DNA of 44,191 bases from an uncultured archaeon (GTDB lineage Archaea > Aenigmatarchaeota > Aenigmatarchaeia > CG10238-14 > SCSR01), in contig CAZERL010000001.1 of NCBI GenBank assembly GCA_964514495.1, positions 1 to 44,191 of the forward strand. Reading direction: 5' to 3'. A program made the translations under genes and the position numbers. The notes below the pieces were generated by a model. It saw only the letters and a program-made list of their open reading frames with translations. It searched no databases and was not told where the DNA came from. This document shows, in pieces, positions 793 to 32,209 of the stretch; position 1 is the stretch's first letter; each line of letters starts with the position of its first letter.

Positions 793-1734
793 CTTTAGCA
801 ATTCAGGATGTTCCTTCCACCATTCAACCGTCAGCCTTAACCCTTCCTTTAATGAAGTCTCAGGCTTCCACCCCAACTCTTTCATTACTTTAGAGCAATC
901 CCCATAAGACCTTGATATATCTTGCGTTCTCATAGATTCCCAAACAGGCTTTACATCAGAACCACACGCTTCTATTATTTCATTGCAAAAGTCGCCGATT
1001 CTTGTTTCAACACCGGAGCACAGATGATATACCTCACCCTTCTTACCCTTTTCCACAATTGTCATATACCCCTTGACTATATCCATCACATATGAATAGT
1101 CTCTAGTTGGATTAGGATTACCAAGTTTAGGTGCTTGCCCTTTCAAAACCTGCGATATTACCTTTGGTACAAAGAAATCACCACGCTGACCAGGGCCGTA
1201 TTTGTTGAATGCGCGTGAAATCACCACATCAAATCCCTGATCTATCAAAGGTTTCAAAATGACTTCTGCCGCAAATTTAGACGAAGAATAAATATCAACT
1301 GGATTTGGTGCAGCATCTTCTTTCAGAGGCAATTTATCCTCCGGTTGGTTGCCGTACACATGGCACGTAGATATATGCAGCATTCTTTCTGCATTACTTT
1401 TCATCGCAGCCCATGCAACATTAAAAGCACCTATTGTATTCACCTGTATCGTATTAGCTGGTACATCTCTAGCCCCAACAACAGGAACTACAGCCGCAGA
1501 ATGAAACACATAATCAACACCCTCCATAGCGTTAATCAAACTTGTCATGTCGGTTACATCACCATTCAAAATACTCACATCATTTTTGATTTCATTTAAA
1601 TTGAAAACCAACCCGCCTCTTTTAACAAAAGCTTTGACGTTCGCATTCTCTTCCAACAATGCTTTGCATAAGTTCGAGCCTGTAAACCCATTAGCGCCAG
1701 TAACTAATACAATCTTACCTTCCCAAAATCCCAT
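787..1734 (-). CDS. NAD-dependent sugar epimerase/reductase (extended SDR)
   Basis: 315 aa. Rossmann motif VTGANGFTGSNL. Catalytic region ISTCHVYG ... YSSSK (YxxxK). Confidence 0.85.
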   Translation of the reverse strand: MGFWEGKIVLVTGANGFTGSNLCKALLEENANVKAFVKRGGLVFNLNEIKNDVSILNGDVTDMTSLINAMEGVDYVFHSAAVVPVVGARDVPANTIQVNTIGAFNVAWAAMKSNAERMLHISTCHVYGNQPEDKLPLKEDAAPNPVDIYSSSKFAAEVILKPLIDQGFDVVISRAFNKYGPGQRGDFFVPKVISQVLKGQAPKLGNPNPTRDYSYVMDIVKGYMTIVEKGKKGEVYHLCSGVETRIGDFCNEIIEACGSDVKPVWESMRTQDISRSYGDCSKVMKELGWKPETSLKEGLRLTVEWWKEHPELLKL

Positions 1735-1742
1735 AACATCAC

Positions 1743-2726
1743 TTAAATTGTCTTAATATTATGGTTTATAAGTTCTACTAATGTGTCCTTGAAGTCTATT
1801 TCCGGCTTCCAATCTAACTCCCTTTTAGCTTTAGAATTATCCCCAATCAAAATCGGCATGTCCTTTTTTCTAAGCCTTTTTTTATCAATTTCTACTGGCA
1901 CATTATCCAAATTAAATTCTTTTATCAATTGTTGTATAAGATCCCGAATCTTGTATCCTTTGCCGCTGCATAAATTATATACATCACACTTCTTACACTT
2001 TTCCGCAGCCAAGATATAACCATTTACGATATCCCTAACATCACTGAAATCTCTAACTACATCAATGTTTCCAAAAAATAAAGTTTTAGCCCGCCCTTTT
2101 ACCACATTCGATATCTGCCTTACAATTTCCATCCCAACAACATCTTTATTGCACCTAGGTCCTTCATGGTGGAATGCTCTTGTTATTGCAATTGACATGC
2201 CATAAGCATTGGAATAGAATCTGCATAAACTATCTGCAGAAGCCTTTGATATACCATACATTTCAAAGGGCCTGATTTCCTGCGTTTCTTTGATTGGAAT
2301 CTCTTCAGGCTTCACATCACCATATACGTTAGATGAACTCGCAAAATGTATTTTCGAAATACCGCCCTCATATCTTCTAATCGCGTCCATTAAGTTCATA
2401 GTTCCTGTAAAGTTCAAAGAAAATGTTTTAAAAGGTTCGTCGTAGCTTATTTTAGCGAGGGCTTGTGCGGCCAAATGGAAGACAATATCAGGTTCACATT
2501 TCTTCACCGCAGACGATAAAGAATCTATTTTAAGTATATCCCCATTTAACAGAGTCATTTTATCTTTTAAGTGTTCCATATTTTCTAAAGACGAATTTTC
2601 CCTTTTCAGTCCAAACAGTTCAATTTTACTTCTTTCTAATAATTTTTCAGCCAGCCAAGAACCAGCAAATCCAGTAACCCCTGTTATGAGGATTCTCTTA
2701 TCATCCCAGAAATTAGATGACATCAA
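1743..2726 (-). CDS. Gmd/Rmd-clade extended SDR (NDP-4-keto-6-deoxyhexose reductase-like)
   Basis: 327 aa. ITGVTGFAGSWL, SSSNVYG, YGISK. FHHEGPR resembles the FNHESPRR block of the GDP-mannose dehydratase/reductase clade. Lies 8 nt upstream of the previous SDR on the same strand. Confidence 0.8.
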   Translation of the reverse strand: MMSSNFWDDKRILITGVTGFAGSWLAEKLLERSKIELFGLKRENSSLENMEHLKDKMTLLNGDILKIDSLSSAVKKCEPDIVFHLAAQALAKISYDEPFKTFSLNFTGTMNLMDAIRRYEGGISKIHFASSSNVYGDVKPEEIPIKETQEIRPFEMYGISKASADSLCRFYSNAYGMSIAITRAFHHEGPRCNKDVVGMEIVRQISNVVKGRAKTLFFGNIDVVRDFSDVRDIVNGYILAAEKCKKCDVYNLCSGKGYKIRDLIQQLIKEFNLDNVPVEIDKKRLRKKDMPILIGDNSKAKRELDWKPEIDFKDTLVELINHNIKTI

Positions 2727-2776
2727 TAGAATAGTGTTCTATAAATGTTTAAGTCCGTATCGGTCATTATAACCTT

Positions 2777-4051
2777 ATGCTAAAGGACGAAGCCATAAAA
2801 AACATAAGTCAAATAGTTATGGAGTATTTCAAAACTCAAAAATTCGAATTCGTACCAGGCAAAACTAAAATTCCTTTGCAATGGCCCAGCTACGGATACG
2901 AGGAGGTTAATGAAGCCATAGAATCCCTTTTGTCAACCTGGGTGACAATGGGCAAAAAAGTAAACGCTTTTGAAAATCTTTTCTCCAGCTATTTAGGCGC
3001 AAAATATTCTGCGATGGTGAATTCCGGCTCTTCCGCGAATCTGGCAGTATTAACAGCCTTGACAAACCCTGTATTGAGAGATAGAATAAACAAAGGTGAT
3101 GAAATAATCACTCCTGCTGTGACATGGGCTACTACAGTATATCCTATAGTCAATGTCGGGACCAAGCCTGTTTTTGTCGACGTTGGTCTTGATTATAACA
3201 TAGATGTGGATAAAATCGAATCGGCAATTACCGATAAAACTGCGGCAATAATGCCAGTGCATCTGCTTGGAAATCCCTCGGATATAAAAAGAATTATGGA
3301 GATTGCAGATGGTCATGACCTATTTGTTATAGAAGACAATTGCGAATCTTACGGGGCTGAGGTAAACGGCAAGAAAACAGGAACCTTCGGAGACGTAGGA
3401 ACCTCCAGTTTTTTCATCTCGCATCAGATAACGACAATAGAGGGAGGCATGATAAATACCGATGACGAAACACTTTTCGAGTTGGTAAAACAAATACGAG
3501 TTTTCGGATGGATAAGGGATTTAAAAGACAGAGAAGCTATAGCAAAGAAGTACAGCCACATAGACCCTAGATTCCTATTCATAAATATGGGATTCAATTT
3601 AAGGCCTACTGAAATACAAGGCGCATTTGGAATGCACCAACTGAAAAAGCTTGACTATTTCATAAAATTAAGGAAGGACAATGCAGACCTTTGGAACAAA
3701 AGGTTAGAAGAATTTTCAGATTATTTGATATTGCCGAAAGAGCGTCCAGGCACAAGGCATGTTTGGTTTTGCTACCCTTTGACCGTTAAACCTGATGCGC
3801 CATTTACAAGAAAAGAGCTGACAGATTTTCTGGAATCCAGGAAAATAGAAACAAGGCCAGTGCAGACTGGGAATATGGTGGAGCAACCGGTATCAGAATT
3901 TTTGGGTTATCGTGCATCAGGAGAATTAACAAATTCTAAACTTATAATGTATAATTCGTTTTTCTTTGGAAATCATCAGAATATTGGAAAACCCGAAAGG
4001 GAATATGTTGCTGATTGTATAGAAGAGTTCATAAAATCGAAGGTTATATAA
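2777..4051 (+). CDS. RfbH/ColD-like PMP-dependent NDP-4-keto-6-deoxyhexose 3-dehydratase (DegT/DnrJ/EryC1 fold)
   Basis: 424 aa. VNSGSSANLAVLTAL, GDEIITPAVTWATTVYP and FGDVGTSSFFISHQITTIEGGMI. His occupies the position of the Schiff-base Lys found in DegT aminotransferases (SFHPVKNITTGEGG). RfbH (SFYPAHHITMGEGG) and ColD have the same substitution. Confidence 0.75.
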   Translation: MLKDEAIKNISQIVMEYFKTQKFEFVPGKTKIPLQWPSYGYEEVNEAIESLLSTWVTMGKKVNAFENLFSSYLGAKYSAMVNSGSSANLAVLTALTNPVLRDRINKGDEIITPAVTWATTVYPIVNVGTKPVFVDVGLDYNIDVDKIESAITDKTAAIMPVHLLGNPSDIKRIMEIADGHDLFVIEDNCESYGAEVNGKKTGTFGDVGTSSFFISHQITTIEGGMINTDDETLFELVKQIRVFGWIRDLKDREAIAKKYSHIDPRFLFINMGFNLRPTEIQGAFGMHQLKKLDYFIKLRKDNADLWNKRLEEFSDYLILPKERPGTRHVWFCYPLTVKPDAPFTRKELTDFLESRKIETRPVQTGNMVEQPVSEFLGYRASGELTNSKLIMYNSFFFGNHQNIGKPEREYVADCIEEFIKSKVI

Positions 4052-4968
4052 TGAATTTTGACGGCAAGACCGCTATTGTAACCGGTGGTGCTGGATTTTT
4101 GGGTTCACACATCGTCGATAAATTACTAGACCTGGGCGTTAATGTCACTGTTGTTGATTTAGCAGCAAATGCAAAACGATTGTCGCATGTTGTTAACAAA
4201 ATCGAATTCGTAAATCTTGATATATCCAATGAAAAAAACTTAAAGAGCTTGAAGCCATCAGATTTTATTTTCCATCTTGCCGCTTACGCAGTCCCAAACC
4301 TATGCGAAAAAAATCCCGACATGGCCTTTAAGGCTAATGTGCTTGGCACATATAACATGCTTAAGTTTGCCTTGGAAACTTCAGCTAAGAAAATAATTTT
4401 CCCCTCATCGGCACTGTTATATGGAAAGCACCCAAAATATCTTCCAATAGACGAAAAACACCCTATAGAAATTGGTTCTGTATACAATTCAACAAAGAAA
4501 TTCGGCGAAGACATGTGCAACTATTTTCTCGAGAATCATAATTTACCTGTTGTCTATTTCAGATTGTTCAATTCATTCGGTCCTAGGCAGGATATCGATT
4601 ATTTCATACCAACAGTGATTGTGCAGGCATTGAAACAAAAAGAAATTGGAATTTGGAATGCAGAACCAACAAGAGATTTTACATTCGTGGCCGATACAGT
4701 CGATGCATTTATTAAAGCAGCAGAATCGAATTTTGTCGGGGGACCTATAAACATTGGTTCTGGCCGTGAGATAAAAGTTGGTGAAATAGCAAAGGTGATT
4801 GCTGAAAAACTTGATGCTAAGTTGGTAATGCTAAATAAAACTGTTTCAGGTTCAATGCGGCTTTCTTGCAATAATTTTTTAGGGAAAAAGACTATAGGAT
4901 GGGAACCGCACATAAAATTTGAAGACGGGCTTAACGAGACTATAGACTCGTTCATTAAGAATAAATAA
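4051..4968 (+). CDS. GalE-like NAD-dependent epimerase (extended SDR)
   Basis: MNFDGKTAIVTGGAGFLGSHIV, SSALLYG, YNSTK. I prefer the ATG at 4051, which shares its A with the upstream TAA (TAATG), over the ORF-track start at 4015. Confidence 0.85.
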   Translation: MNFDGKTAIVTGGAGFLGSHIVDKLLDLGVNVTVVDLAANAKRLSHVVNKIEFVNLDISNEKNLKSLKPSDFIFHLAAYAVPNLCEKNPDMAFKANVLGTYNMLKFALETSAKKIIFPSSALLYGKHPKYLPIDEKHPIEIGSVYNSTKKFGEDMCNYFLENHNLPVVYFRLFNSFGPRQDIDYFIPTVIVQALKQKEIGIWNAEPTRDFTFVADTVDAFIKAAESNFVGGPINIGSGREIKVGEIAKVIAEKLDAKLVMLNKTVSGSMRLSCNNFLGKKTIGWEPHIKFEDGLNETIDSFIKNK

Positions 4969-5013
4969 ACCATATCTATGAAACTATATTCCAGCGAATA
5001 CTTTTAAACCATA

Positions 5014-5733
5014 ATGTCAAATAATGGAAATATGATTTCAGTCGTTTTACCAACATACAATGAAAGAGAAAATATCGTCAATCTTATTACTCACATAGAG
5101 TCTGTTCTCAAAAGAAAAGGGCTGAAAGCTGAGATAGTGGTTGTTGACGATAATTCCCCAGATGGAACAGCAAGGATTGTAAGAAAGCTAAATAAAAAAT
5201 ATAGAAACATAAGAGTCTTTGTCCGCCCCAAAAAACTTGGTATAGGATCCGCACACCTTTTTGGCTATCAGAAAGCAAAAGGGTATATAGTAATTGCGAT
5301 GGATACAGACCTTTCACATGACCCAGAACAGATTGTCAACATGATTGAGAAAATTAATGAAGGCTATGACATCGTTGCCGGCTCAAGGCATATGAAAGGC
5401 TCATACTATGAGAGGAAAACGCCCGAAACAAGGAGAAAATATATTGCAAGCAAATACGGTAATATGCTGACAGCCTTCATATCTGGAGTCCCTATACACG
5501 ACTTTACTAACGGGTTCAGGGCAATAAGGAAAGATGTTGTGAAAAATGTCAAGACAGAATCTACAGGAAATTCGTTTCTCATGGAGTTCATAGTAAAGGC
5601 ACAAAACAAGGGCTACAGGGTTACTGAAATACCAGTGACTTTCAAGGACAGGAAGTTCGGCCAATCAAAGCTTCAGTTGGAAAAGGAATCTCTAAAATAT
5701 ATACTGGACCTGCTGAAGTATTCAAGAACCTAG
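5014..5733 (+). CDS. Dolichyl/polyprenyl-phosphate hexose synthase (GT2, Dpm1-like)
   Basis: 239 aa. ISVVLPTYNERENI..EIVVVDDNSPDGTA..MDTDLSHDP..AGSRH..DFTNGFRA is the classic Dpm1/polyprenol-monophosphomannose synthase layout. Confidence 0.85.
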   Translation: MSNNGNMISVVLPTYNERENIVNLITHIESVLKRKGLKAEIVVVDDNSPDGTARIVRKLNKKYRNIRVFVRPKKLGIGSAHLFGYQKAKGYIVIAMDTDLSHDPEQIVNMIEKINEGYDIVAGSRHMKGSYYERKTPETRRKYIASKYGNMLTAFISGVPIHDFTNGFRAIRKDVVKNVKTESTGNSFLMEFIVKAQNKGYRVTEIPVTFKDRKFGQSKLQLEKESLKYILDLLKYSRT

Positions 5734-5803: not shown

Positions 5804-6082
5804 ATGTACCTTTTCGTATTTAGCTTTATGGTATGGTATTTTAATATCATGCGCGTCGAAAAGGATACTTACGACTATATGTTTGGAAATGAATTAACTG
5901 AATTTTGTAAAACAAAAGGATTGAATTATTATTATGGTAGTGTTAGTATAAAAAATACCACACAATACGTAAGTCGCTGTGAAGAGGAAAAAATTAAATA
6001 TTTGCTTTTGGATGGGGAGAGGATCTGCATAGTCCCTTCAGAGACAGAAAGAATAATATGTAAAAGATTTCAAGTTAATTAG
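5804..6082 (+). CDS. Hypothetical small protein (92 aa, hydrophobic N-terminus, 4 Cys)
   Basis: The ORF is the only evidence; I recognise no family. It is very AT-rich. An alternative start is MRVEK. Confidence 0.3.
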   Translation: MYLFVFSFMVWYFNIMRVEKDTYDYMFGNELTEFCKTKGLNYYYGSVSIKNTTQYVSRCEEEKIKYLLLDGERICIVPSETERIICKRFQVN

Positions 6083-6094
6083 TTAAGTGATTCT

Positions 6095-6283
6095 ATGGGT
6101 CTGTTCCGATCTTTGCGTGCAATCTACAGCAAGCTGATGATAATGAAAGAGATGATTGTCTTTCTGTGGAAGTCGAAAAACTGGTGGCTTATACCTTTTG
6201 TAATTTTGCTTTTTGCATTCGGAATTTTATTTATAGTTGGCCAGTCTACACCATTGGGACCACTAATATACGCGTTGTTTTGA
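6095..6283 (+). CDS. DUF5989 / SxtK-like small single-pass membrane protein
   Basis: 62 aa. ..FLWKSKNWW-LIPFVILLFAFGILFIVG-QSTPLGPLIYALF shows a basic patch, WW, one TM helix and a GPxIYxLF C-terminus, as I recall for this family. An internal start at MIMKEM is possible. Confidence 0.7.
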   Translation: MGLFRSLRAIYSKLMIMKEMIVFLWKSKNWWLIPFVILLFAFGILFIVGQSTPLGPLIYALF

Positions 6284-6284
6284 T

Positions 6285-7133
6285 ATGGACATAACAGAAA
6301 AAGTCAAGGACTTTTACAACAGAACACCCTTTCCGGATTTTGAGTTAAGCAGGTTCAATTCTAAAGGCGATTTGATAAATAGTGCATTCCCATTTGCGAA
6401 ATATTTAAACGAAAAGATACCGAAGGATGCTAGTGTGATTGACATAGGTTGCGGAACAGGACAACTAGTTTCCCTGCTTTCATTGGAAAGAAATAATGTT
6501 GTCGGAGTAGACATGTCAGACTCCTCATTGGCCAAGGCTAAAAAGCTGAAAGAGAGGTTTGACCTAAAGACGTTGAGGCTGTTTCAAGCCGACATATTTA
6601 ACATTGGCATAGACGAGCAGTTTGACTATGTGCTCTGTCTTGGAGTACTGCATCACACCAAGGATGCAAAAGAAGCTTTTAGGCAGATTCTGAAATTGGC
6701 CAAGCCAAACGGGTACGTTGTAATAGGTCTATACAACAAGTTCGGAAGGATTTCCCTCTATCTCAGGAAATTCTTGTTGCATACAATTTTTAGGGACAAT
6801 GAAACAGTGAAGAGGCTGTTTCTTAAAAAGCAGATAATGTCTTTTAATGACAAGGAAAGGTTCCGAGGATGGTACAACGACCAGTTCGAGCATGTGCACG
6901 AGTCGGGGCATACGGTATCAGAAGTTCTGGGATGGTTCAAGGAAAATAACATCGAATATATCAATTCAATACCTACACTGAGATTGGCTTACGACTTTGA
7001 TATTACTAGCCAAAATTTGTTCGACAAAGAGGAGATAAACCTCAACTCAAAGCACATCATAAACCAGTTGCGGTGGATTTTCAGCACTGCGAATGACGGA
7101 GGTTATTTCATAACTGTAGGTAGGAAGATATGA
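6285..7133 (+). CDS. Class I SAM-dependent methyltransferase
   Basis: 282 aa. SAM motif I VIDIGCGTGQL; FDYVLCLGVLHH; PNGYVVIGLYN. Starts 1 nt after the upstream stop. Confidence 0.85.
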   Translation: MDITEKVKDFYNRTPFPDFELSRFNSKGDLINSAFPFAKYLNEKIPKDASVIDIGCGTGQLVSLLSLERNNVVGVDMSDSSLAKAKKLKERFDLKTLRLFQADIFNIGIDEQFDYVLCLGVLHHTKDAKEAFRQILKLAKPNGYVVIGLYNKFGRISLYLRKFLLHTIFRDNETVKRLFLKKQIMSFNDKERFRGWYNDQFEHVHESGHTVSEVLGWFKENNIEYINSIPTLRLAYDFDITSQNLFDKEEINLNSKHIINQLRWIFSTANDGGYFITVGRKI

Positions 7134-8191
7134 TACTTGGCGAAAATGAAAAGTTGTCCAGTGAGCACAAAAGATCTAGGGCAGCTGATGGACAACCTAG
7201 CATGGCGAAAAGAATTGTTGTAATCTTGCTGATGTTACTTACATTTGAGATTACATTTAGAGTTCTGAATGTAGAGAATTTTCGTGACGAGGCTTTGATT
7301 GAAGATGATTATTTGGGTCATGTGGTCAAGCCGAATCTGGATATCATCATCCAAAATGCAGATGAAATGGAAGTGCATGTGAAAACCATAGGTTACAATG
7401 GGATAGGGCTGAGGGACGATAAGTTGGAAAATCCGTATATTATAGCAATAGGTGACTCACACACCTTCGGGTTGGCCGTCAACGAAAGCGACCTTTGGGT
7501 GAACATTCTCGAAAAGAAACTAAATAAGGAAGTTCTAAACATGGGGATTGGAAGCTACGGGCTTATACAGGAGGAAAGGATGGTGAAAAAATATGCGTTG
7601 CAGACAGAACCAAAAATAATATTGTGGCAGTTCTCGCCAAACGATTACCTAGAAAGCTACAGATTCGAGAACAGAAACCTTAATTTTACCTGGCATAATT
7701 TGAAGCAGTTCGCAATAAACAACATCGCTATAGCGAAATTTGTGTGGAGCAAGCTGGGAGCCATAAAGCATGATGCGGCTGTTGTAGAATACAATGAGCA
7801 CAATTTGAGTTTCGTGTTTGAGCCTTACTCCTTTTTAAATCAGGCTGATGTCAACGAAGAAATAAGGGTTGGAGAGAATTTGGGGAAGCAGGCGGTAACA
7901 AGGGCAAAAAAACTCGCTGACGCTAATGATGTAAAACTTATAATGATTTTGATTCCCAGTAAGGAGGAGATATATTTTGACCTTACAAACAATTATCAGA
8001 TGGACTCAATGAGAAATTTTTGCGTGGAATTGGAATTTGATTGTGTCGATATGACTGAAGAATTTTCTAAGCAGGCAAAGATGTATAGGCAGCTATATTT
8101 CAGAAAGGACGCACACCTGAACTCTTTGGGTAATAAATTGGTTGCGGATGAAATTTACAATTACTTGATAGAAAATTATTTTATCAATTAG
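7130..8191 (+). CDS. Membrane-anchored SGNH/GDSL-fold protein (putative glycan O-acetyl esterase or transferase)
   Basis: 353 aa. N-terminal TM helix RIVVILLMLLTFEITF. Block I IIAIGDSHTFG. C-terminal DAHLNSLGNKLVA (DxxH). ATGA overlap with the methyltransferase. Confidence 0.7.
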   Translation: MILGENEKLSSEHKRSRAADGQPSMAKRIVVILLMLLTFEITFRVLNVENFRDEALIEDDYLGHVVKPNLDIIIQNADEMEVHVKTIGYNGIGLRDDKLENPYIIAIGDSHTFGLAVNESDLWVNILEKKLNKEVLNMGIGSYGLIQEERMVKKYALQTEPKIILWQFSPNDYLESYRFENRNLNFTWHNLKQFAINNIAIAKFVWSKLGAIKHDAAVVEYNEHNLSFVFEPYSFLNQADVNEEIRVGENLGKQAVTRAKKLADANDVKLIMILIPSKEEIYFDLTNNYQMDSMRNFCVELEFDCVDMTEEFSKQAKMYRQLYFRKDAHLNSLGNKLVADEIYNYLIENYFIN

Positions 8192-23051: not shown

Positions 23052-23792
23052 ATTCAATTAAAAGGTAAAATAGCCGTTATAACCGGTGGTAGCAAAGGAC
23101 TTGGAAAAGAGCTAGCTAAATTTTTTTCCGCCGAAGGTAGCACAGTTGTCATCTGTTCAAGAAGCGCGAATGACCTGAAGAGTGTTTGCAATGAAATTGT
23201 TGGTGCTGGCGGGAAGTGCGAATATTTTGTAGTTGATGTAACCAATAAAAAACAAGTCGACAAGCTTATTGATAAAGTTCTCAGTTCACATGGCAGAGTT
23301 GATGTTTTAGTCAATAATGCTGGATATGCCACCAAGTGGAAGGGCATAGAGAAAAATACTGAAGGAGAATTCGAAACATGCTTTAGAACTAACGTATATT
23401 CAATTTTCTATTTCCTTAAAAAAATAGTTCCGATAATGCGAAGGCAGAATTCAGGCTCGATAATCAACATATCATCCATGGCTGGGAAAAGAGGGATTCC
23501 AAACTTGGCAGCATATTGCGCTAGTAAATTTGCAGTGGTGGGGCTCACCCAATCTGTTGCTAAAGAGCTTAAGGATACTGATGTCCTCTGTATAAGTGTA
23601 TGCCCAGGAGGAATGTCCACAGAAATGCGGTCAAAGATATTTGGATTGGAAGATGCCAAGAAGCAACAAAGCCCACAGTATGTCGCAAATGTAATTAAAG
23701 ATGTTTTGTTAGGTAAGATAAAAGTTCCTAATGGCGGCGATATAATCATAAGGCATGGCAAAATAATGGCTATTAATCCCGCGCCAGAATAA
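23052..23792 (+). CDS. Classical SDR oxidoreductase (FabG-like), with no canonical start codon; proposed ATT start
   Basis: The frame is open from 23031 to 23792. It reads ..IQLKGKIAVITGGSKGLG (TGxxxGxG), NNAG, and SSMAG..YCASK (S-Y-K triad). There is no in-frame ATG, GTG or TTG before 23436, which lies downstream of the Rossmann and NNAG motifs. GGTG at 23041-23044 sits 7 nt before the ATT at 23052. Confidence 0.6.
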   Translation: MQLKGKIAVITGGSKGLGKELAKFFSAEGSTVVICSRSANDLKSVCNEIVGAGGKCEYFVVDVTNKKQVDKLIDKVLSSHGRVDVLVNNAGYATKWKGIEKNTEGEFETCFRTNVYSIFYFLKKIVPIMRRQNSGSIINISSMAGKRGIPNLAAYCASKFAVVGLTQSVAKELKDTDVLCISVCPGGMSTEMRSKIFGLEDAKKQQSPQYVANVIKDVLLGKIKVPNGGDIIIRHGKIMAINPAPE

Positions 23793-26773: not shown

Positions 26774-26883
26774 ATGAAGTTTATTGACTCTTTGAAAGGC
26801 ATTTTAAGCATAATAAAAGAATTATTGAGCCTCCTATGGAGGAAGAAACTTTGGTGGGACCATTTATTTATGCTTTGTTTTAG
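26774..26883 (+). pseudogene. Decayed DUF5989/SxtK-like gene: N- and C-terminal motifs in different frames, TM core deleted
   Basis: AAGGTGA Shine-Dalgarno, then ATG at 26774. The reading gives MKFIDSLKGILSIIKELLSLLWRKKLWW (frame 1). The family C-terminus GPFIYALF-stop appears at 26857-26883 in another frame. The roughly 22-codon hydrophobic segment present in the intact paralog at 6095-6283 is missing. Confidence 0.55.
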
Positions 26884-26907
26884 ATTTCTTAAATTGAACG
26901 TGATTGC

Positions 26908-27132
26908 TTGAAAGGTATATGGAAAAAATGGCTGTTTGTATCCGAAAAGATCGGAAACTTCATGTCCAGAGTAATTCTCACCTTGCTTTATTTTACAATT
27001 TTCGCGATTCCAGGCATCGCTTCTAGACTCTTCACAGATAAGCTGCAGATCAAGAAAAGAAAAACTTCATACTGGGTTGACATCAAAGATAAAGTACCCA
27101 AGGATATAGAAGAAAGCAGAAATCAAGGCTGA
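26908..27132 (+). CDS. SxtJ-like (short form) small membrane protein, partner of the carbamoyltransferase
   Basis: 74 aa from a TTG start. KKWLFVSEKIGNFMSRVILTLLYFTIFAIPGIASRLFTDKLQIKKRKTSYWVD resembles, from memory, the C-terminal half of SxtJ-family proteins (..SPIVLGLLFF..P.GLLMRL.GKDPL.L......SYW..). Confidence 0.6.
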   Translation: MKGIWKKWLFVSEKIGNFMSRVILTLLYFTIFAIPGIASRLFTDKLQIKKRKTSYWVDIKDKVPKDIEESRNQG

Positions 27133-27161: not shown

Positions 27162-28889
27162 ATGGTGGCAATATTAGGTATTTCATGTTACTATCATGAT
27201 GCTACCGCATCAATAATAAAGGATGGTAAAATTTTAGCAGCTGCTGCCGAGGAAAGATTCAGCAGAAAAAAGCACGATTTCGGATTTCCTCAAGCTGCAA
27301 TAAATCTTTGCTTAAGAAAAGCTGGTGTTGGTAGCAATGGCTTGGATTATGTCGTATTTCACGAAAAACCCTTCGTTAGATTCGAGAGGCTGCTAAGGAC
27401 TATACTAGAGACATACCCGAAATCATCGACAGTTTTTAGAGAGTCTATGCTGAGCTGGATGAAGGATAAGCTTTGGATTAAAAATACAATAGCACAGAAA
27501 CTTGGGTTAAAAGATGATAAAAAAATATTGTTTAGCGATCACCATCTTTCCCACGCTGCCAGCGCGTTTTTCTGCTCACCATTCAAAGAATCCGCAATAA
27601 TTACGGCCGATGCAGTAGGCGAGTGGACAACAGCAACCATCGGGTCTGGGAAAGATAACAAAATAACTTTGTTGAAAGAACTGAGATTCCCCCATTCTTT
27701 CGGGCTTTTGTACAGTGCTGTAACAGCCTTTCTTGGATTTGAGGTAAATGAGGGGGAATATAAGGTAATGGGTTTGGCGCCATTCGGCAACCCAAAGTAT
27801 AAAGATAAGATATACAAGTTAATCAACCTCTGTGGCGATGGAAGCTTTTCTCTGAATATGAAATATTTCATGTACCACCGGTCTGTTGACAAGATGTTCA
27901 GCAAGGAGTTTGAAAAATTGTTCGGCAAGCCTTGCCCACCAGAAGATAGAGATAAAGTGATTCCATATTATGCGGATATCGCAGCCAGCATACAAGAAGT
28001 TTTGGAAGAGTTGTTGATAAAAACTGCCAATTATGCATATGAACTGACTAAAATGAAAAATCTATGTTTTGCCGGTGGGGTTGCGCTAAATAGCAAAGCA
28101 AACTATAGGATACTCAATGAAACGCCATTCGAGGATATGTTTATACAACCTGCTGCAGGTGATGATGGTGGTTCTTTGGGGGCGGCCTTGTTTGCATATT
28201 ATTCTTTGTTGAATAACGAAAGGAATCCCTATCAACTCGTTTTAAAGAGCGCATATTTCGGCGAAGAATATACTGAGGAAGAAATTAAAAATTTCCTTGA
28301 AAGCAACAAAATAAAATACCAATATTTCGAAGATGAGGACGAATTTTTAAGCGAAGTAGTAAATCATTTGCTAAACCAAAAAGTTATAGGCTGGTTCCAA
28401 GGCAGGTTCGAATGGGGACCAAGGGCATTGGGCAACAGAAGTATCATAGCCGATCCCAGAAATCCTGAAATGAAGGACACAGTTAACAATAAAATTAAAT
28501 TCAGAGAGCCTTTCAGACCCTTTGCACCATCTGTACTTGCCGAAAGGGCGCATGAGTTCTTTGAATTGCCAGAAGTAAGAGACTTTTCTCCCATTAGATT
28601 CATGGTGTACGTCACGCCTGTAAAAAAAGACAAGCGGCATGTAATACCTGCAGTCACGCATATTGACGGTACTGGAAGGTTGCAGACTGTTTCAAAGGAA
28701 GACAACCCAAGATACTATAAGCTGATAGAAAAATTCGAAAATAAGACAAAAGTGCCAGTGATATTGAATACCAGTTTCAATCTAAAAGGGGAGCCTATTG
28801 TCAATAGCCCTGAGGAAGCATATAGTTCATTCATGAGAAGTGGCATGGATTTTCTAGTCTTAGAAAAATTTATTGTTGCTAAAACTTAA
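27162..28889 (+). CDS. NodU/CmcH/SxtI-family O-carbamoyltransferase
   Basis: 575 aa. ILGISCYYHDATASIIKDGKILAAAAEERFSRKKHD..FP is the canonical N-terminus. A C-terminal YrdC/Kae1-like region contains PSVL..FF. Confidence 0.9.
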   Translation: MVAILGISCYYHDATASIIKDGKILAAAAEERFSRKKHDFGFPQAAINLCLRKAGVGSNGLDYVVFHEKPFVRFERLLRTILETYPKSSTVFRESMLSWMKDKLWIKNTIAQKLGLKDDKKILFSDHHLSHAASAFFCSPFKESAIITADAVGEWTTATIGSGKDNKITLLKELRFPHSFGLLYSAVTAFLGFEVNEGEYKVMGLAPFGNPKYKDKIYKLINLCGDGSFSLNMKYFMYHRSVDKMFSKEFEKLFGKPCPPEDRDKVIPYYADIAASIQEVLEELLIKTANYAYELTKMKNLCFAGGVALNSKANYRILNETPFEDMFIQPAAGDDGGSLGAALFAYYSLLNNERNPYQLVLKSAYFGEEYTEEEIKNFLESNKIKYQYFEDEDEFLSEVVNHLLNQKVIGWFQGRFEWGPRALGNRSIIADPRNPEMKDTVNNKIKFREPFRPFAPSVLAERAHEFFELPEVRDFSPIRFMVYVTPVKKDKRHVIPAVTHIDGTGRLQTVSKEDNPRYYKLIEKFENKTKVPVILNTSFNLKGEPIVNSPEEAYSSFMRSGMDFLVLEKFIVAKT

Positions 28890-30483
28890 GCTCATAAATT
28901 ATATTACCGTCACACCCACCTTGTTGTATACACTGCTTTAGGGGTGGGCCATTTTCGTATACTTTTACAAAAGTTTCATTGTTTTCTTCAAAAAACATGA
29001 TTGTATCTATTTTATATGTTTCACTTATAGCTTCATTGCCAAGACTAAACTTTTGTATGAACAAATGAGTTATGCCGACTTCATTGATATCTTTCCTTAT
29101 AAGCTCCAAGTCTTTGCTCAAGAAAATATCAGGCGGATTGCCAACCACAATTCTTTCGCAGCTGTAAGCAGCCCTATGCACCCACACAGTAGATAGTACA
29201 ACATCCTTAGGTAGATTATTTCGAACCCATTCACACGTCTCGAAGAACGCAGGGGAGAATTGTTTTACCTGCTTCATTACTATGAGTTTAGATGACAAAT
29301 TTTGGTATGCCAAAATTATAACTATTAGGAATACTATTACTGCAATATACTTTTGGTGAGACTGTAAAAATTCATATAATCTGCCGAAATATACACCTGT
29401 AAGAATTGCAAAAATTGGTGTCCATGCCAATATGTTTCTTGCAGCGTCTTCGGCTCTTGCTGTAGTAAAATGGAAGTATGGTACAAATGTGAACAAAGCC
29501 AGTAAAAGCAATACACTTGTTACATCTCTGCGTTGCAATAGAATTACCAATCCACCAAAAATACCTAGTGTTACTAGCCATATGTTTCCGAATGCAAAAT
29601 CCAAAAAGTTGGTTATACCCATTCTATAAACACCTTCGTTAGAACCCCCGCCTTGGGTTATAGCCTGATACTGGTATGATTGTTCCCTTAATAGGGTTCC
29701 ATATTCGCAGCCAGCCCTGCCAAAAATTTTATCGGTAAATGGCAAGTAACACTCTGGCACTTTGTAGATGCCCAAATTTCTTACAAAAAAACCGCTTATT
29801 AAGACAATGAATAAAACGAATATTGTCGCGTATTTTGTTATTTGGAAATTTCTTCGTGCCAAATCATAAAACGCCGCCAATAAAATGAATATAATTAAAT
29901 TTACTGACGAGACTTCTGTTAGGAATGCGAATGCAGCAAACGCACCAGTCAGCAATAGGTATTTTTTACTTTCTGTTTTGGCGCTATACAGAAACAATAA
30001 TACAGTAAGTGCAAAATAAAGCGTTACAAGGCCTTCTGTATAGAAAGTTACTGCATATGTTACCACAGAGGGTATAGAAATGAAAACAATCGCTGCAATA
30101 AATCCAATTTTATCATCAAATATTTTCTTTACTAAGATATAGATGGACAATGCGGTCAATAGCGATATAAAGGGCAGTAGTAATTTTACTATAACTTCAT
30201 TGAAGCCAAATACAAGAAAGAAGCCAGCCTCTAACAAATGCAACATAGGTGGTTTACCGAAATTATTCCTACCGGCCTCAGTTCCCTCTATGGTTATCCA
30301 AGCTGAATAATCCTTCTCTTTTGCAATGTAACGTGCCATTCCAGTGTGGAAGGCTTCGTCGCCAAATGTTATAGGACTGGGAAGCGTTACCTGCAGTTCT
30401 AATACAAAAAATACTAATAAGATTACCAATAATGCGATAAGAGATGTATTCTTGAATTCCAGTACTATTTTCTCGTCTGCCAA
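28879..30483 (-). CDS. GT-C fold glycosyltransferase, PMT/ArnT-like (second copy)
   Basis: 534 aa polytopic protein. First-loop FGDEAFHTG, then GKPPMLHLLEAG. Cys-rich soluble C-terminal domain. Confidence 0.75.
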   Translation of the reverse strand: MADEKIVLEFKNTSLIALLVILLVFFVLELQVTLPSPITFGDEAFHTGMARYIAKEKDYSAWITIEGTEAGRNNFGKPPMLHLLEAGFFLVFGFNEVIVKLLLPFISLLTALSIYILVKKIFDDKIGFIAAIVFISIPSVVTYAVTFYTEGLVTLYFALTVLLFLYSAKTESKKYLLLTGAFAAFAFLTEVSSVNLIIFILLAAFYDLARRNFQITKYATIFVLFIVLISGFFVRNLGIYKVPECYLPFTDKIFGRAGCEYGTLLREQSYQYQAITQGGGSNEGVYRMGITNFLDFAFGNIWLVTLGIFGGLVILLQRRDVTSVLLLLALFTFVPYFHFTTARAEDAARNILAWTPIFAILTGVYFGRLYEFLQSHQKYIAVIVFLIVIILAYQNLSSKLIVMKQVKQFSPAFFETCEWVRNNLPKDVVLSTVWVHRAAYSCERIVVGNPPDIFLSKDLELIRKDINEVGITHLFIQKFSLGNEAISETYKIDTIMFFEENNETFVKVYENGPPLKQCIQQGGCDGNIIYELKF

Positions 30484-30667: not shown

Positions 30668-32209
30668 TTGAAAGTATTGTTGTTGAACCCACCTAACCAA
30701 TTCAAAATAAGCAAGACAAGCAGATGGCCCGAATGGACGAAAAGCGGGACTTTATATTATCCATTTTGGCTAGCTTATGCCACATCAGTTCTAATGGAAT
30801 CCAAACACAAACCACTGCTTTTGGATGCTATTGCAAAAAATCTAGACTTCCAGATGACTTTAGAAAAAATCCAGGATTTCAATCCTGATATGGTTGTTAT
30901 AGAATCCTCAACACCCAGTGTGCATAGAGATGCACAGTTTGCCGATGATGTGAAGAAGATATCTGATTCAAAAATAGTTTTCGCTGGTAGACATGTAACC
31001 GCTACAACCGAACAAACCCTGAAGATGTTCAAATCAATTGACATAGTTGCAAGAGGCGAGTATGATTACACTATTTTGGATATTGCAAATGAGCTCAACA
31101 ACGGGCAAAACCTCAAAGAAGTCGTTGGCATCTCATTTAGAAAAAACGGAAATATAATAAATACCCCGATAAGACAATTGACTCAGAATTTAGACGAAAT
31201 GCCGTTCGTATCAAAAGCATACAGGGAATTTTTGGATGTGAGAGATTACAGGTATGCATTAGCACAGCATCCCATGTTGCAGCTTTGGAGCAGTAGAGGA
31301 TGCCCAAATAGATGTACATATTGCGACTATCCTCAGGTGATGACGATGCATACATTCAGAATGAGAAGTGCAAAAAACGTCGTTGATGAAATGGAATACA
31401 TTCATAAAAACTTGCCAAATGTCAAAGAAATTTTCCTTGAAGATGACACATTTACAATTGATAGAAATCGTACGTTTGAAATTTGTAAAGAAATACAAGA
31501 GAGAAAATTAAAACTCATTTGGTCTTGTAATGTTAGAGCTAATCTTGATTATGATATTTTGAAGGCAATGAAGGAAGCTGGTTGTCGTATTTTGATTGTG
31601 GGATACGAAAGTGGCAATCAACAAGTTTTAAACAACATAAAGAAAGGCATTGCGTTAAAACAGGCAGAGGAATTCACCAAACACGCACAAAAACTCGGCT
31701 TAAGGATATTCGGTTGTTTCATGATAGGTTTACCAGGCGATACAAAAGGAAGCATAAATGATACATTGCAGTTTGCAAAAAAGATGCATCCTGATATGGT
31801 ATTTTTCCAACAGGGTGTACCGTTCCCAGGAACAGAATTCTACGAATGGGCTAAGTATATGGGGTATCTGAAGACAGAGGACTACAGCAAGTGGTTTGAC
31901 GAAACAGGTAGACTGGACTGTTTAGTGAATCAGCCAGGCTTGAGTGGAGAAGAGGTTAAAAAAATGAGAGAAAACCTTATGCTGCGATATTACTTGGATC
32001 CAAGGCACATATTCTATACCTTGAGAAGGAATCTCCATCCTTTCGAATTTGTAAGGGTTGTACATTATGCTAAAGATTACCTTGCCTTCCTTATGTTAAA
32101 GAAGCTTAAATCAATGCAAAAGAAAAGCGTGAAAGACGATACGCCTCTAATTCACCACAAGCATGAAGAGAAAGGACCATTTGAAGAAAGACTACTCCAA
32201 TCGACTTAA
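30668..32209 (+). CDS. B12-binding-domain radical SAM enzyme (class B)
   Basis: 513 aa from a TTG start. N-terminal MKVLLLNPP..DMVVIESSTPS..IVFAGRHVT (cobalamin-binding Rossmann-like domain), then SSRGCPNRCTYCDYP (CxxxCxxC). Confidence 0.85.
   Translation: MKVLLLNPPNQFKISKTSRWPEWTKSGTLYYPFWLAYATSVLMESKHKPLLLDAIAKNLDFQMTLEKIQDFNPDMVVIESSTPSVHRDAQFADDVKKISDSKIVFAGRHVTATTEQTLKMFKSIDIVARGEYDYTILDIANELNNGQNLKEVVGISFRKNGNIINTPIRQLTQNLDEMPFVSKAYREFLDVRDYRYALAQHPMLQLWSSRGCPNRCTYCDYPQVMTMHTFRMRSAKNVVDEMEYIHKNLPNVKEIFLEDDTFTIDRNRTFEICKEIQERKLKLIWSCNVRANLDYDILKAMKEAGCRILIVGYESGNQQVLNNIKKGIALKQAEEFTKHAQKLGLRIFGCFMIGLPGDTKGSINDTLQFAKKMHPDMVFFQQGVPFPGTEFYEWAKYMGYLKTEDYSKWFDETGRLDCLVNQPGLSGEEVKKMRENLMLRYYLDPRHIFYTLRRNLHPFEFVRVVHYAKDYLAFLMLKKLKSMQKKSVKDDTPLIHHKHEEKGPFEERLLQST

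Follow-up and report, generated by a model that had tools for sequence, protein, structure and literature searches.

The founding saxitoxin (sxt) gene cluster has the order sxtI-sxtJ-sxtK-sxtL, in which sxtI encodes a carbamoyltransferase (CT) and sxtL a GDSL-family protein. Ever since that cluster was described, the entries for SxtJ and SxtK have read "unknown, probably act with SxtI", and a 2025 review words their role in the same way. In this paper, we describe a relative of SxtK, a 62-amino-acid (aa) peptide of the DUF5989 family, which is encoded at positions 6095-6283 of a 44,191-nucleotide (nt) stretch of DNA from an uncultured archaeon of the Aenigmatarchaeota (contig CAZERL010000001.1, positions 1-44,191, assembly GCA_964514495.1; this whole stretch is referred to as the window). 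We hold it somewhat probable that this open reading frame (ORF) encodes the only intact SxtK of a CT-associated gene set and that the peptide serves as a scaffold, i.e. as a bitopic membrane protein which pairs with an SGNH protein and couples it to the CT, to SxtJ and to a methyltransferase (MT).

The locus resembles the saxitoxin clusters in having a DUF5989 member, in the adjacency of an SxtJ-like gene and an SxtI-type CT gene, and in the SGNH gene that accompanies SxtK in the way that sxtL follows sxtK. It differs from them in that the intact peptide gene lies 20.9 kilobases (kb) from the CT gene and has the MT and SGNH genes as its neighbours, the CT-adjacent copy being a pseudogene. Moreover, the SxtJ of the window is a 74-aa protein that falls below detection by Pfam, and the setting is an archaeal surface-glycan island and not a toxin cluster.

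Three further systems offer partial comparisons. In the Nod systems, an S-adenosylmethionine (SAM)-dependent MT (NodS, an N-methyltransferase) is linked with a NodU-family CT (a 6-O-carbamoyltransferase) in glycan decoration. The MT of the window passes the NodS cutoff (32.2 bits against 24), although generic methyltransferase models score it far higher, and its CT reaches 148.8 bits against the NCBIfam NodU model, for which the cutoff is 1000. We know of no SxtJ, SxtK or SGNH component in the Nod systems. The crocagin cluster, which also encodes a carbamoyltransferase (CgnI) and a methyltransferase (CgnL), contributes the one solved structure that matches the SxtK-adjacent SGNH family over almost all of its length, namely that of CgnD (PDB 8a2n; E 8e-13, with SGNH profile positions 48-325 aligned to chain residues 30-344). 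CgnD, however, is a soluble, slow leader-peptide hydrolase of a peptide natural-product pathway for which no membrane anchor is reported, and we take the parallel with CgnD, CgnI and CgnL as a lead by analogy only.

The third comparison concerns the C-terminus of the peptide. DltX is a 49-aa microprotein with a single transmembrane (TM) helix which ends in KFIYNEF, and its tyrosine takes an acyl group from an MBOAT protein and passes it to the catalytic serine of an SGNH protein (PMC12148441, PMC13653941). The C-terminus of PatA (NgPatA) ends in FIYANF; here too the tyrosine is a proven acyl carrier, with the SGNH protein PatB as the partner (PMC12148441, PMC13653941). An N-terminal TM helix anchors DltD, the SGNH partner of DltX, as well as PatB (PMC12148441, PMC13653941), and FXYXXF has been termed the "acyl shuttle" motif (PMC12148441). 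Our search of the literature returned no mention of DUF5989 and no link of SxtK to DltX or to SGNH proteins, and nothing was found on a carbamoyltransferase together with SGNH and carbamoylation. The CT/SxtJ/SxtK gene set itself is known but uncharacterised, and what is new in the present locus is its occurrence as a split set with a decaying duplicate.

The intact SxtK gene and its neighbours

The genes of the window on which the argument turns are listed below with the evidence for each.

5804-6082, forward strand: small conserved protein, 92 aa (48% identity to its L008 counterpart; ORF called in L001-L005)
6095-6283, forward strand: SxtK/DUF5989 microprotein, intact, 62 aa (PF19451 match, hidden Markov model (HMM), ratio of nonsynonymous to synonymous substitution rates (dN/dS), conserved gene order)
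6285-7133, forward strand: class I SAM methyltransferase (MT), 282 aa (Pfam Methyltransf_31/11/12/25, NodS)
7130-8191, forward strand: membrane-anchored SGNH protein, 353 aa (ALGX, Lipase_GDSL_2; ATGA overlap onto the MT gene)
26774-26911, forward strand: second DUF5989 gene, decayed (sequence read, HMM E ~1e-3, alignment to L129)
26908-27132, forward strand: SxtJ homologue, short form, 74 aa, TTG start (HMM of bacterial SxtJ-position proteins)
27162-28889, forward strand: NodU/CmcH/SxtI-type O-carbamoyltransferase (CT), 575 aa (Carbam_trans_N, Carbam_trans_C)

The N-terminus of the 6095-6283 product (MGLFRSLRAIYSKLMIMKEMIVFLWKSKNWWLIPFVILLFAFGILFIVGQSTPLGPLIYALF) is basic and amphipathic. The peptide further contains a WW motif, a single TM helix formed by its one hydrophobic stretch of 21 residues, and the C-terminal tail GPLIYALF, in which Tyr59 occupies position -4. 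An earlier note on this DNA, made from the sequence alone, had assigned the ORF to DUF5989/SxtK on such features, and the profile searches agree with it. PF19451 (DUF5989) matches the peptide over profile positions 3-49 of 49 with 52.6 bits (E 4.9e-14), well above the gathering cutoff of 27, and an HMM built from 121 DUF5989 peptides of the census described below scores it at E 4e-18. A profile of six close homologues, searched against 1.84 billion proteins, found 1,373 cluster representatives at E ≤ 0.001. Among 118 family sequences, no substitution occurs at P34 or Y59, and W31, P56 and F62 are kept in 90% or more. The gene is under purifying selection, with a dN/dS of ~0.08 and ~0.19 against two relatives. 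By these sequence criteria the ORF is a genuine SxtK/DUF5989 membrane microprotein, and the peptides with which it scores best are those encoded directly after an SGNH gene (L039, L112, L126 and L101).

The start codon of the MT gene follows 1 nt after the DUF5989 stop codon (TGA at 6281-6283, t at 6284, ATG at 6285-6287), and the MT gene overlaps the SGNH gene by ATGA at 7130-7133. Both junctions are as the earlier note had given them, and its identification of an MT and a membrane-anchored SGNH protein is upheld by the Pfam matches. Methyltransf_31 gives the MT 81.9 bits, and a search of the PDB returned generic class I methyltransferases only, with no clue as to the substrate. The relatives of the protein were more informative. 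It aligns from end to end with the C-terminal domain of a CT-MT fusion (36% identity, E 7e-57). This fusion, a protein of 938 aa from a Vicinamibacterales metagenome-assembled genome (MAG), is encoded 563 nt upstream of a DUF5989 gene (L105, 2878-5694, reverse strand). With the MT of L073, a Pelagibacterales MAG in which the genes form the row SxtJ-SxtK-MT-CT, the identity is 32%. A 54% identical homologue lies 4.4 kb from SxtK and SxtJ genes (L137), and a 77% identical homologue is annotated at NCBI in a Candidatus Aenigmarchaeota MAG, which makes a DPANN archaeon the probable source of the window. As judged from homology, this MT subfamily is linked to CT cassettes. The SxtK-adjacent MT of L046 was considered as a further member and rejected, being of the Methyltransf_23 type.

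The SGNH protein reaches 30.1 bits against ALGX (cutoff 26.5), nearly passes Lipase_GDSL_2 (30.3 bits) and scores 44.9 bits, below the cutoff, against the NCBIfam LA_2486 SGNH family. A hydrophobic helix, predicted to span the membrane, lies at about residues 25-50 and is the only confident part of a single-sequence AlphaFold2 model (mean pLDDT 33). The predicted catalytic residues are Ser110 (GDS, 108-110) and Asp327 and His329 (DAH, 327-329); of 26 DUF5989-adjacent SGNH proteins, every one has Ser110 and His329, and 90% or more have Asp327. While the sequence alone gave one weak match in the PDB, the family profile was informative and matched AlgJ (4o8v) and AlgX (4knc) in the block V region in addition to CgnD. 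With its block I Ser and block V Asp-x-x-His, the protein is assigned by these matches to the AlgX/AlgJ-like branch of the SGNH/GDSL superfamily, and a topology with the N-terminus inside and the domain outside is predicted.

The 92-aa ORF at 5804-6082 ends 12 nt before the DUF5989 gene and encodes a hydrophobic N-terminal segment followed by a Cys-rich C-terminal part that ends in FQVN. No significant Pfam or NCBIfam match was found for it (best E 0.08). Its product is 48% identical (E 8e-35) to that of a 104-aa ORF directly 5' of the DUF5989 gene in L008. We take the ORF at 5804-6082 to be a probable member of the SxtK-MT-SGNH unit, of which it may be the first gene.

The carbamoyltransferase region

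The CT matches Carbam_trans_N (287.5 bits) and Carbam_trans_C (240.5 bits), both domains at full length, and is the sole carbamoyltransferase of the window, being the only phmmer match among the window ORFs. It starts 20,879 nt downstream of the 6095-6283 gene, which confirms the separation of about 21 kb that was given earlier; the adjacency to SxtJ and to an SxtI/NodU-type CT that is typical of DUF5989 genes is therefore not found at the intact gene. At its 3' end the CT gene overlaps the 3' end of a convergent PMT_2 (GT-C) gene (28879-30483, reverse strand) by 11 nt (28879-28889).

Two small ORFs, absent from the earlier note, occupy the 446-nt stretch 5' of the CT gene. The first is a second DUF5989 gene in decay. 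Its N-terminal 28 codons are intact (MKFIDSLKGILSIIKELLSLLWRKKLWW), and after the WW the sequence continues one base out of frame with GGA CCA TTT ATT TAT GCT TTG TTT TAG, i.e. GPFIYALF and a stop, ending near 26874. In an alignment to the intact gene of L129, 70 nt corresponding to the TM helix segment are missing from the window copy. The same 70-nt deletion is carried by L133 and L134, which come from other metagenomes, so it is not an assembly error. The decayed copy obtains 13.2 bits at most from Pfam and NCBIfam, and the census HMM, run against the 322 window ORFs, finds the intact gene and this remnant (E ~1e-3) only. L129 preserves an undisturbed row of MT (FkbM type)-SGNH-SxtK-SxtJ-CT, and in L130 and L131 the CT-adjacent SxtK is wholly lost. 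The CT-adjacent copy has thus been lost progressively, being intact in L129, without its TM segment in the window and absent from L130 and L131.

The second ORF, 26908-27132, encodes a product with a hydrophobic, hairpin-like core between two basic flanks, for which there was no Pfam match at E ≤ 10 and no NCBIfam match. An HMM was built solely from those bacterial proteins in the SxtJ position that had been missed in the first pass, and hence independently of the window ORF; it recovers 26908-27132 at E 6.4e-13 and no other ORF of the window. One of the long bacterial proteins in this position (L016) matches Pfam SxtJ (PF19588) with 33.9 bits, and the short ones reach 18-20 bits over profile positions 48-99, the C-terminal half. 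Since the bacterial HMM finds the ORF and the long members match PF19588, we regard 26908-27132 as a short-form SxtJ, a membership which is by transitive homology and extends to the C-terminal half of PF19588 only. The intact peptide had been described as an orphan. That description does not hold, as the same island contains SxtJ and CT genes with a decayed DUF5989 copy and the corresponding row of L129 is intact.

Census of DUF5989 neighbourhoods

The genomic context of DUF5989 was surveyed in one genome per species by scanning with a hand-made degenerate DNA pattern (WW-[LMVI]-x-P, a gap of 60-66 nt, P-[FL]-x-Y-x-x-F-stop). Of 156 family sequences, 103 (~66%) conform to this pattern, which has one match in the window, where none is expected by chance. 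The census comprises 120 loci among the matches listed (at least 120 exist); four are archaeal and the others come from many bacterial phyla. Since every locus is represented by a chunk of 8 kb that is not centred on the match, the neighbour frequencies are lower bounds.

SxtJ was found near DUF5989 in 92 of the 120 loci and a CT in 88; of the 51 loci that have 2 kb or more of flank on either side, 44 have a CT. In the loci with a CT, the nearest one lies at a median distance of 494 nt and never farther away than 3,440 nt, and in all four archaeal loci the CT adjoins the peptide gene. The separation of 20.9 kb in the window is unusual by this measure. The earlier note had stated that DUF5989 peptides normally sit beside SxtI/NodU-type carbamoyltransferases, which is what the census shows; DUF5989 genes are not routinely unlinked from a CT, as they would have to be for the arrangement in the window to be unremarkable.

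After SxtJ and CT, the next most frequent neighbour is the SGNH family seeded by the window protein, which occurs in 53 of the 120 loci and in 30 of the 51 well-flanked ones. In 26 loci the SGNH gene lies within 300 nt of SxtK on the same strand. The most frequent gene order is CT-SxtJ-SxtK (24 loci), and the orders CT-SxtJ-SxtK-SGNH, CT-SGNH-SxtK-SxtJ and SGNH-SxtK-SxtJ-CT recur; in L129, L101, L112 and L125 the SGNH gene lies inside the CT cassette. A generic methyltransferase profile detects an MT in 11 loci. Apart from generic methyltransferases, no other recurrent family was present in more than seven census loci, those that recur being epimerases, GT2, GT4 and DegT. The gene set of CT, SxtJ, SxtK and SGNH, sometimes with an MT, is thus widespread in bacteria and archaea, and it comprises more than a CT accompanied by two small ORFs.

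Seven of the 51 well-flanked loci are without a CT, and three of these have an adjacent SGNH gene. Lone SxtK genes adjoin Wzy_C, GT2, a carbamoyl-phosphate-synthase-like ATP-grasp protein or unrelated genes. The ATP-grasp protein, which resembles the large chain of carbamoyl-phosphate synthase, is encoded in L061 (3521-5074, reverse strand) 192 nt upstream of the DUF5989 gene in a chunk that has no CT, which hints that this "unlinked" DUF5989 is still tied to carbamoyl metabolism.

Variant architectures were also encountered among the cluster representatives. In P0128 and P0142 the DUF5989 module is the C-terminus of proteins of 203-204 aa with an additional N-terminal domain of about four TM helices, and P0149 is a 100-aa chimera in which the DUF5989 PFIYA runs directly into the C-terminal half of SxtJ. 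An apparent CT-SxtK fusion in L037 was rejected, the long ORF being an artefact of overlapping frames in GC-rich DNA.

Conservation of the SxtK-MT-SGNH triad in relatives

The order peptide-MT-SGNH is found in every contig that encodes a 76-100% identical peptide (L001-L008, L135, L139 and L140). These close relatives appear to be DPANN archaea of an Aenigmarchaeota-like kind; L135 is a MAG labelled Aenigmarchaeota, and in L008 the genes that flank the triad differ from those of the window. L136 has the order SxtK-MT-(50-aa ORF)-SGNH with a 57% identical MT, and a CT lies 4.4 kb upstream. A scan of metagenomes with an alignment of close relatives gave only five loci, mostly from one sample.

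The DUF5989 genes at L135 9790-9999 and L136 5833-5991 are uncalled in the source assemblies and score at E 3e-19 and 4e-23 against the family HMM. Censuses based on annotation will undercount DUF5989 because gene callers skipped such copies. The homologous glycan island of L135 is interrupted at 2962-5574 by a ParE-toxin gene, an RHS-repeat protein and an Imm11-like gene. In L142 (6264-8640), a DUF5989 gene whose product is 43% identical to the 6095 peptide is followed by two CT fragments, possibly a broken CT, and a convergent SGNH gene.

A split gene set, probably served by one peptide

The explanation that we favour, with slightly better than even confidence, is that the conserved set has been divided in the window between two sub-operons of one island, namely the 92-aa ORF-SxtK-MT-SGNH at 5.8-8.2 kb and the SxtK pseudogene-SxtJ-CT at 26.8-28.9 kb. 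SxtK would be bitopic. Its basic amphipathic N-terminal helix would face the cytoplasm, where CT, SxtJ and MT are expected to act, and the strictly C-terminal PFIYxLF tail would face outwards. In a set of 150 family representatives retrieved by HMM, and hence independently of the DNA pattern, the mean net charge is +3.7 in the N-terminal part and about 0 in the tail, from which the topology with the N-terminus in and the C-terminus out is predicted by the positive-inside rule alone. The peptide may then pair with the membrane-anchored, extracytoplasmic SGNH protein as DltX does with DltD, and in this way the carbamoylation or methylation of a lipid-linked glycan in the cytoplasm would be coupled to a step catalysed by the SGNH protein outside the cell.

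With the copy next to the CT dead or deleted in this lineage, the 6095 copy most likely also serves SxtJ and the CT in trans. The former decays while purifying selection acts on the latter, and this is most simply read to mean that a single peptide is enough and works for both halves. The split in this lineage and the progressive loss of the CT-adjacent copy suggest the same.

A number of points weigh against this explanation. The one argument for action in trans over 21 kb is the decay of the local copy, and SxtK might be dispensable for the CT. In L135 and L008 no CT lies within ~10 kb of the triad, and in a minority of bacterial loci (for example L020, L036, L038, L060 and L124) SGNH and SxtK occur without a CT within 2-7 kb, so that an SxtK-SGNH pair may be able to work without a CT. 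The census is not unbiased, given the ~66% coverage of the pattern, the lower bound of 120 loci and the short uncentred chunks. The iterated SGNH and MT profiles are broad, and the clear census members of the window MT subfamily are L073 and L105 only. Lastly, reviews still present SxtJ and SxtK only as presumed partners of SxtI.

The C-terminal tyrosine and a possible acyl shuttle

The scaffold explanation can be sharpened mechanistically into a covalent shuttle, in which SxtK, as a carrier of the DltX kind, would transiently bear a carbamoyl or acyl group on its C-terminal tyrosine and hand this group to the SGNH serine and from there to an extracytoplasmic glycan. CT and SxtJ would replace the MBOAT and the carrier protein as the loading machinery. 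We consider this possible but rather doubtful.

The C-terminal ends of the family speak for it. The consensus of the 150 representatives is A-P-F-I-Y-T-L-F, with Tyr at -4 in 146, Pro at -7 in 139, Phe at -1 in 132 and Phe at -6 in 124 of them, and FxYxxF stands exactly at the C-terminus in 112. Among all 5,313 ORFs of at least 45 aa in the census loci, searched as a control, only three besides SxtK end in FxYxxF. The only long one of these is an MBOAT that ends in FIYFDF beside an SGNH gene in L053. The gene of this 470-aa protein (1686-3098, forward strand; PF03062, 121.9 bits) shares its 8-kb chunk with a DUF5989 gene and a CT fragment, and L053 has a classical, separate MBOAT-SGNH pair side by side with a DUF5989 cassette. 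SxtK shares with DltX a size of ~50-60 aa, the single TM helix, the predicted outward C-terminus and the F-I-Y-x-x-F end with its near-invariant Tyr, and the DltX (KFIYNEF) and NgPatA (FIYANF) ends carry proven Tyr carriers to SGNH proteins. The SxtK-adjacent SGNH proteins in turn resemble DltD and PatB in the N-terminal TM anchor, the intact Ser-Asp-His triad and the adjacency of the genes; in the window the SGNH gene is two genes downstream of SxtK.

The differences are nevertheless substantial. No MBOAT or AT3 protein was found among the window ORFs and none is recurrent in the 120 listed loci. SxtK cassettes are without an MBOAT or a carrier protein, and the partners are instead the cytoplasmic CT and SxtJ. 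The CT would thus act on the side of the membrane opposite to the predicted position of the tyrosine. The SxtJ core, to go by its sequence, looks like a re-entrant hairpin with both basic flanks inside and not like a channel. A Pfam-wide scan of the 6095 peptide (E ≤ 1) returned DUF5989, DUF7807 and Ferlin_C only and revealed no detectable homology to DltX. The peptide of the window itself has L-I-Y-A-L-F, with Leu and not Phe at -6 although the Tyr and the terminal Phe are kept, and the SGNH gene is absent from 67 of the 120 chunks and from 21 of the 51 well-flanked loci.

A broader proposal, to which we attach only a low probability, is that DUF5989/SxtK is the tyrosine-shuttle part of an unrecognised, MBOAT-independent pathway, in which a NodU-type CT, docked on SxtJ, would load a carbamoyl or other acyl group that finally sits on the tyrosine, and the membrane-anchored SGNH protein would transfer it to an extracytoplasmic glycan. 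If true, this would amount to extracytoplasmic O-carbamoylation of cell-surface polymers by a pathway whose microproteins form at least 1,373 clusters at 50% identity in bacteria and archaea, and the archaeal split into SxtK-MT-SGNH and SxtJ-CT would be a natural separation of the delivery and the loading halves. The FxYxxF tail without an MBOAT provides, in any case, a testable idea of function for a family that is large in the surface-glycan clusters of many phyla. Whether SxtK is a scaffold or a shuttle, either answer would annotate thousands of genes and would bear on the carbamoyl, methyl and acyl decoration of archaeal and bacterial surface glycans.

Other explanations

The earlier note had proposed that the peptide is a general membrane adaptor for glycan-decoration enzymes which works here with the MT and the SGNH protein only and independently of carbamoylation. 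Such an adaptor would account for the translational coupling of the triad, for its retention despite different flanks (L008) and with no CT within ~10 kb (L135), for the bacterial chunks in which SGNH-SxtK or SxtK-MT occur without a CT, and for the lone SxtK genes beside Wzy_C, GT2 and other glycan genes. Yet a CT is present in 44 of the 51 well-flanked loci at a median of 494 nt, the same island has SxtJ and CT genes with a decayed SxtK, the MT subfamily is fused to a CT in L105, the SGNH gene lies within the CT cassette in L129, L101, L112 and L125, and in L136 a CT lies 4.4 kb from the triad. The MT and SGNH genes are no evidence of independence from the CT, because both are recurrent members of CT cassettes. 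The contention that the peptide is not specific to carbamoylation accordingly finds no support, in view of the SGNH family in 53 of 120 loci, of an MT subfamily that is fused to a CT in L105 and stands between SxtK and CT in L073, and of the founding sxt cluster, where the GDSL protein SxtL already follows SxtK. What stands of the proposal is that SxtK pairs with SGNH or MT genes with no CT nearby (L020, L036, L038, L060, L124 and L046); the independence from carbamoylation is not supported. We judge this explanation unlikely.

It is less likely again that the two loci are functionally unrelated, in which case SxtK would be dispensable for SxtJ-CT, hence its decay, and the 6095 copy would be a diverged paralogue that serves its own SGNH protein. 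The absence of SxtK beside SxtJ-CT in L130 and L131, the identity of only 32% between the SGNH protein of the window and that of the L129 cassette, and the clade-specific KSKNWW and GPLIYALF of the 6095 peptide, which the decayed copy lacks, are in line with such a history. In most lineages, however, and over a very wide phylogenetic range, SxtK accompanies the CT, which argues for a needed function.

That the 62-aa ORF is merely a chance reading frame, as its shortness and the homologues missed by gene callers in L135 and L136 might suggest, is refuted by a Pfam score of twice the cutoff, the 1,373 cluster representatives that match the profile at E ≤ 0.001, the dN/dS of 0.08-0.19 and the conserved position and gene order, and has practically no probability left.

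Other genes of the island

The window is an archaeal surface-glycan/N-glycosylation island. It encodes WbqC, several NDP-sugar epimerases/dehydratases, DegT aminotransferases, many GT2 and GT4 proteins and Alg13/Alg14-like proteins, together with two PMT_2 (GT-C) proteins, a Wzx-type flippase, a GT4 phosphotransferase, a C-methyltransferase, a B12-radical SAM enzyme and AglB/STT3. Beyond the island genes are those for RadA, a RIO kinase and the archaeal ribosomal proteins S3Ae and S15. No tRNA was found in a scan of the window, and a scan for sigma-70 promoters and terminators gave matches at background level, the sigma-70 model not being applicable to archaea.

The B12-binding radical SAM enzyme is encoded at 30668-32209 (forward strand), just past the PMT_2 gene that is convergent to the CT gene, and may introduce a further glycan modification. 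At 23436-23792 (forward strand), a 118-aa ORF matches a short-chain dehydrogenase model at positions 123-190 only and looks like the remnant of a truncated gene of that family within the island.

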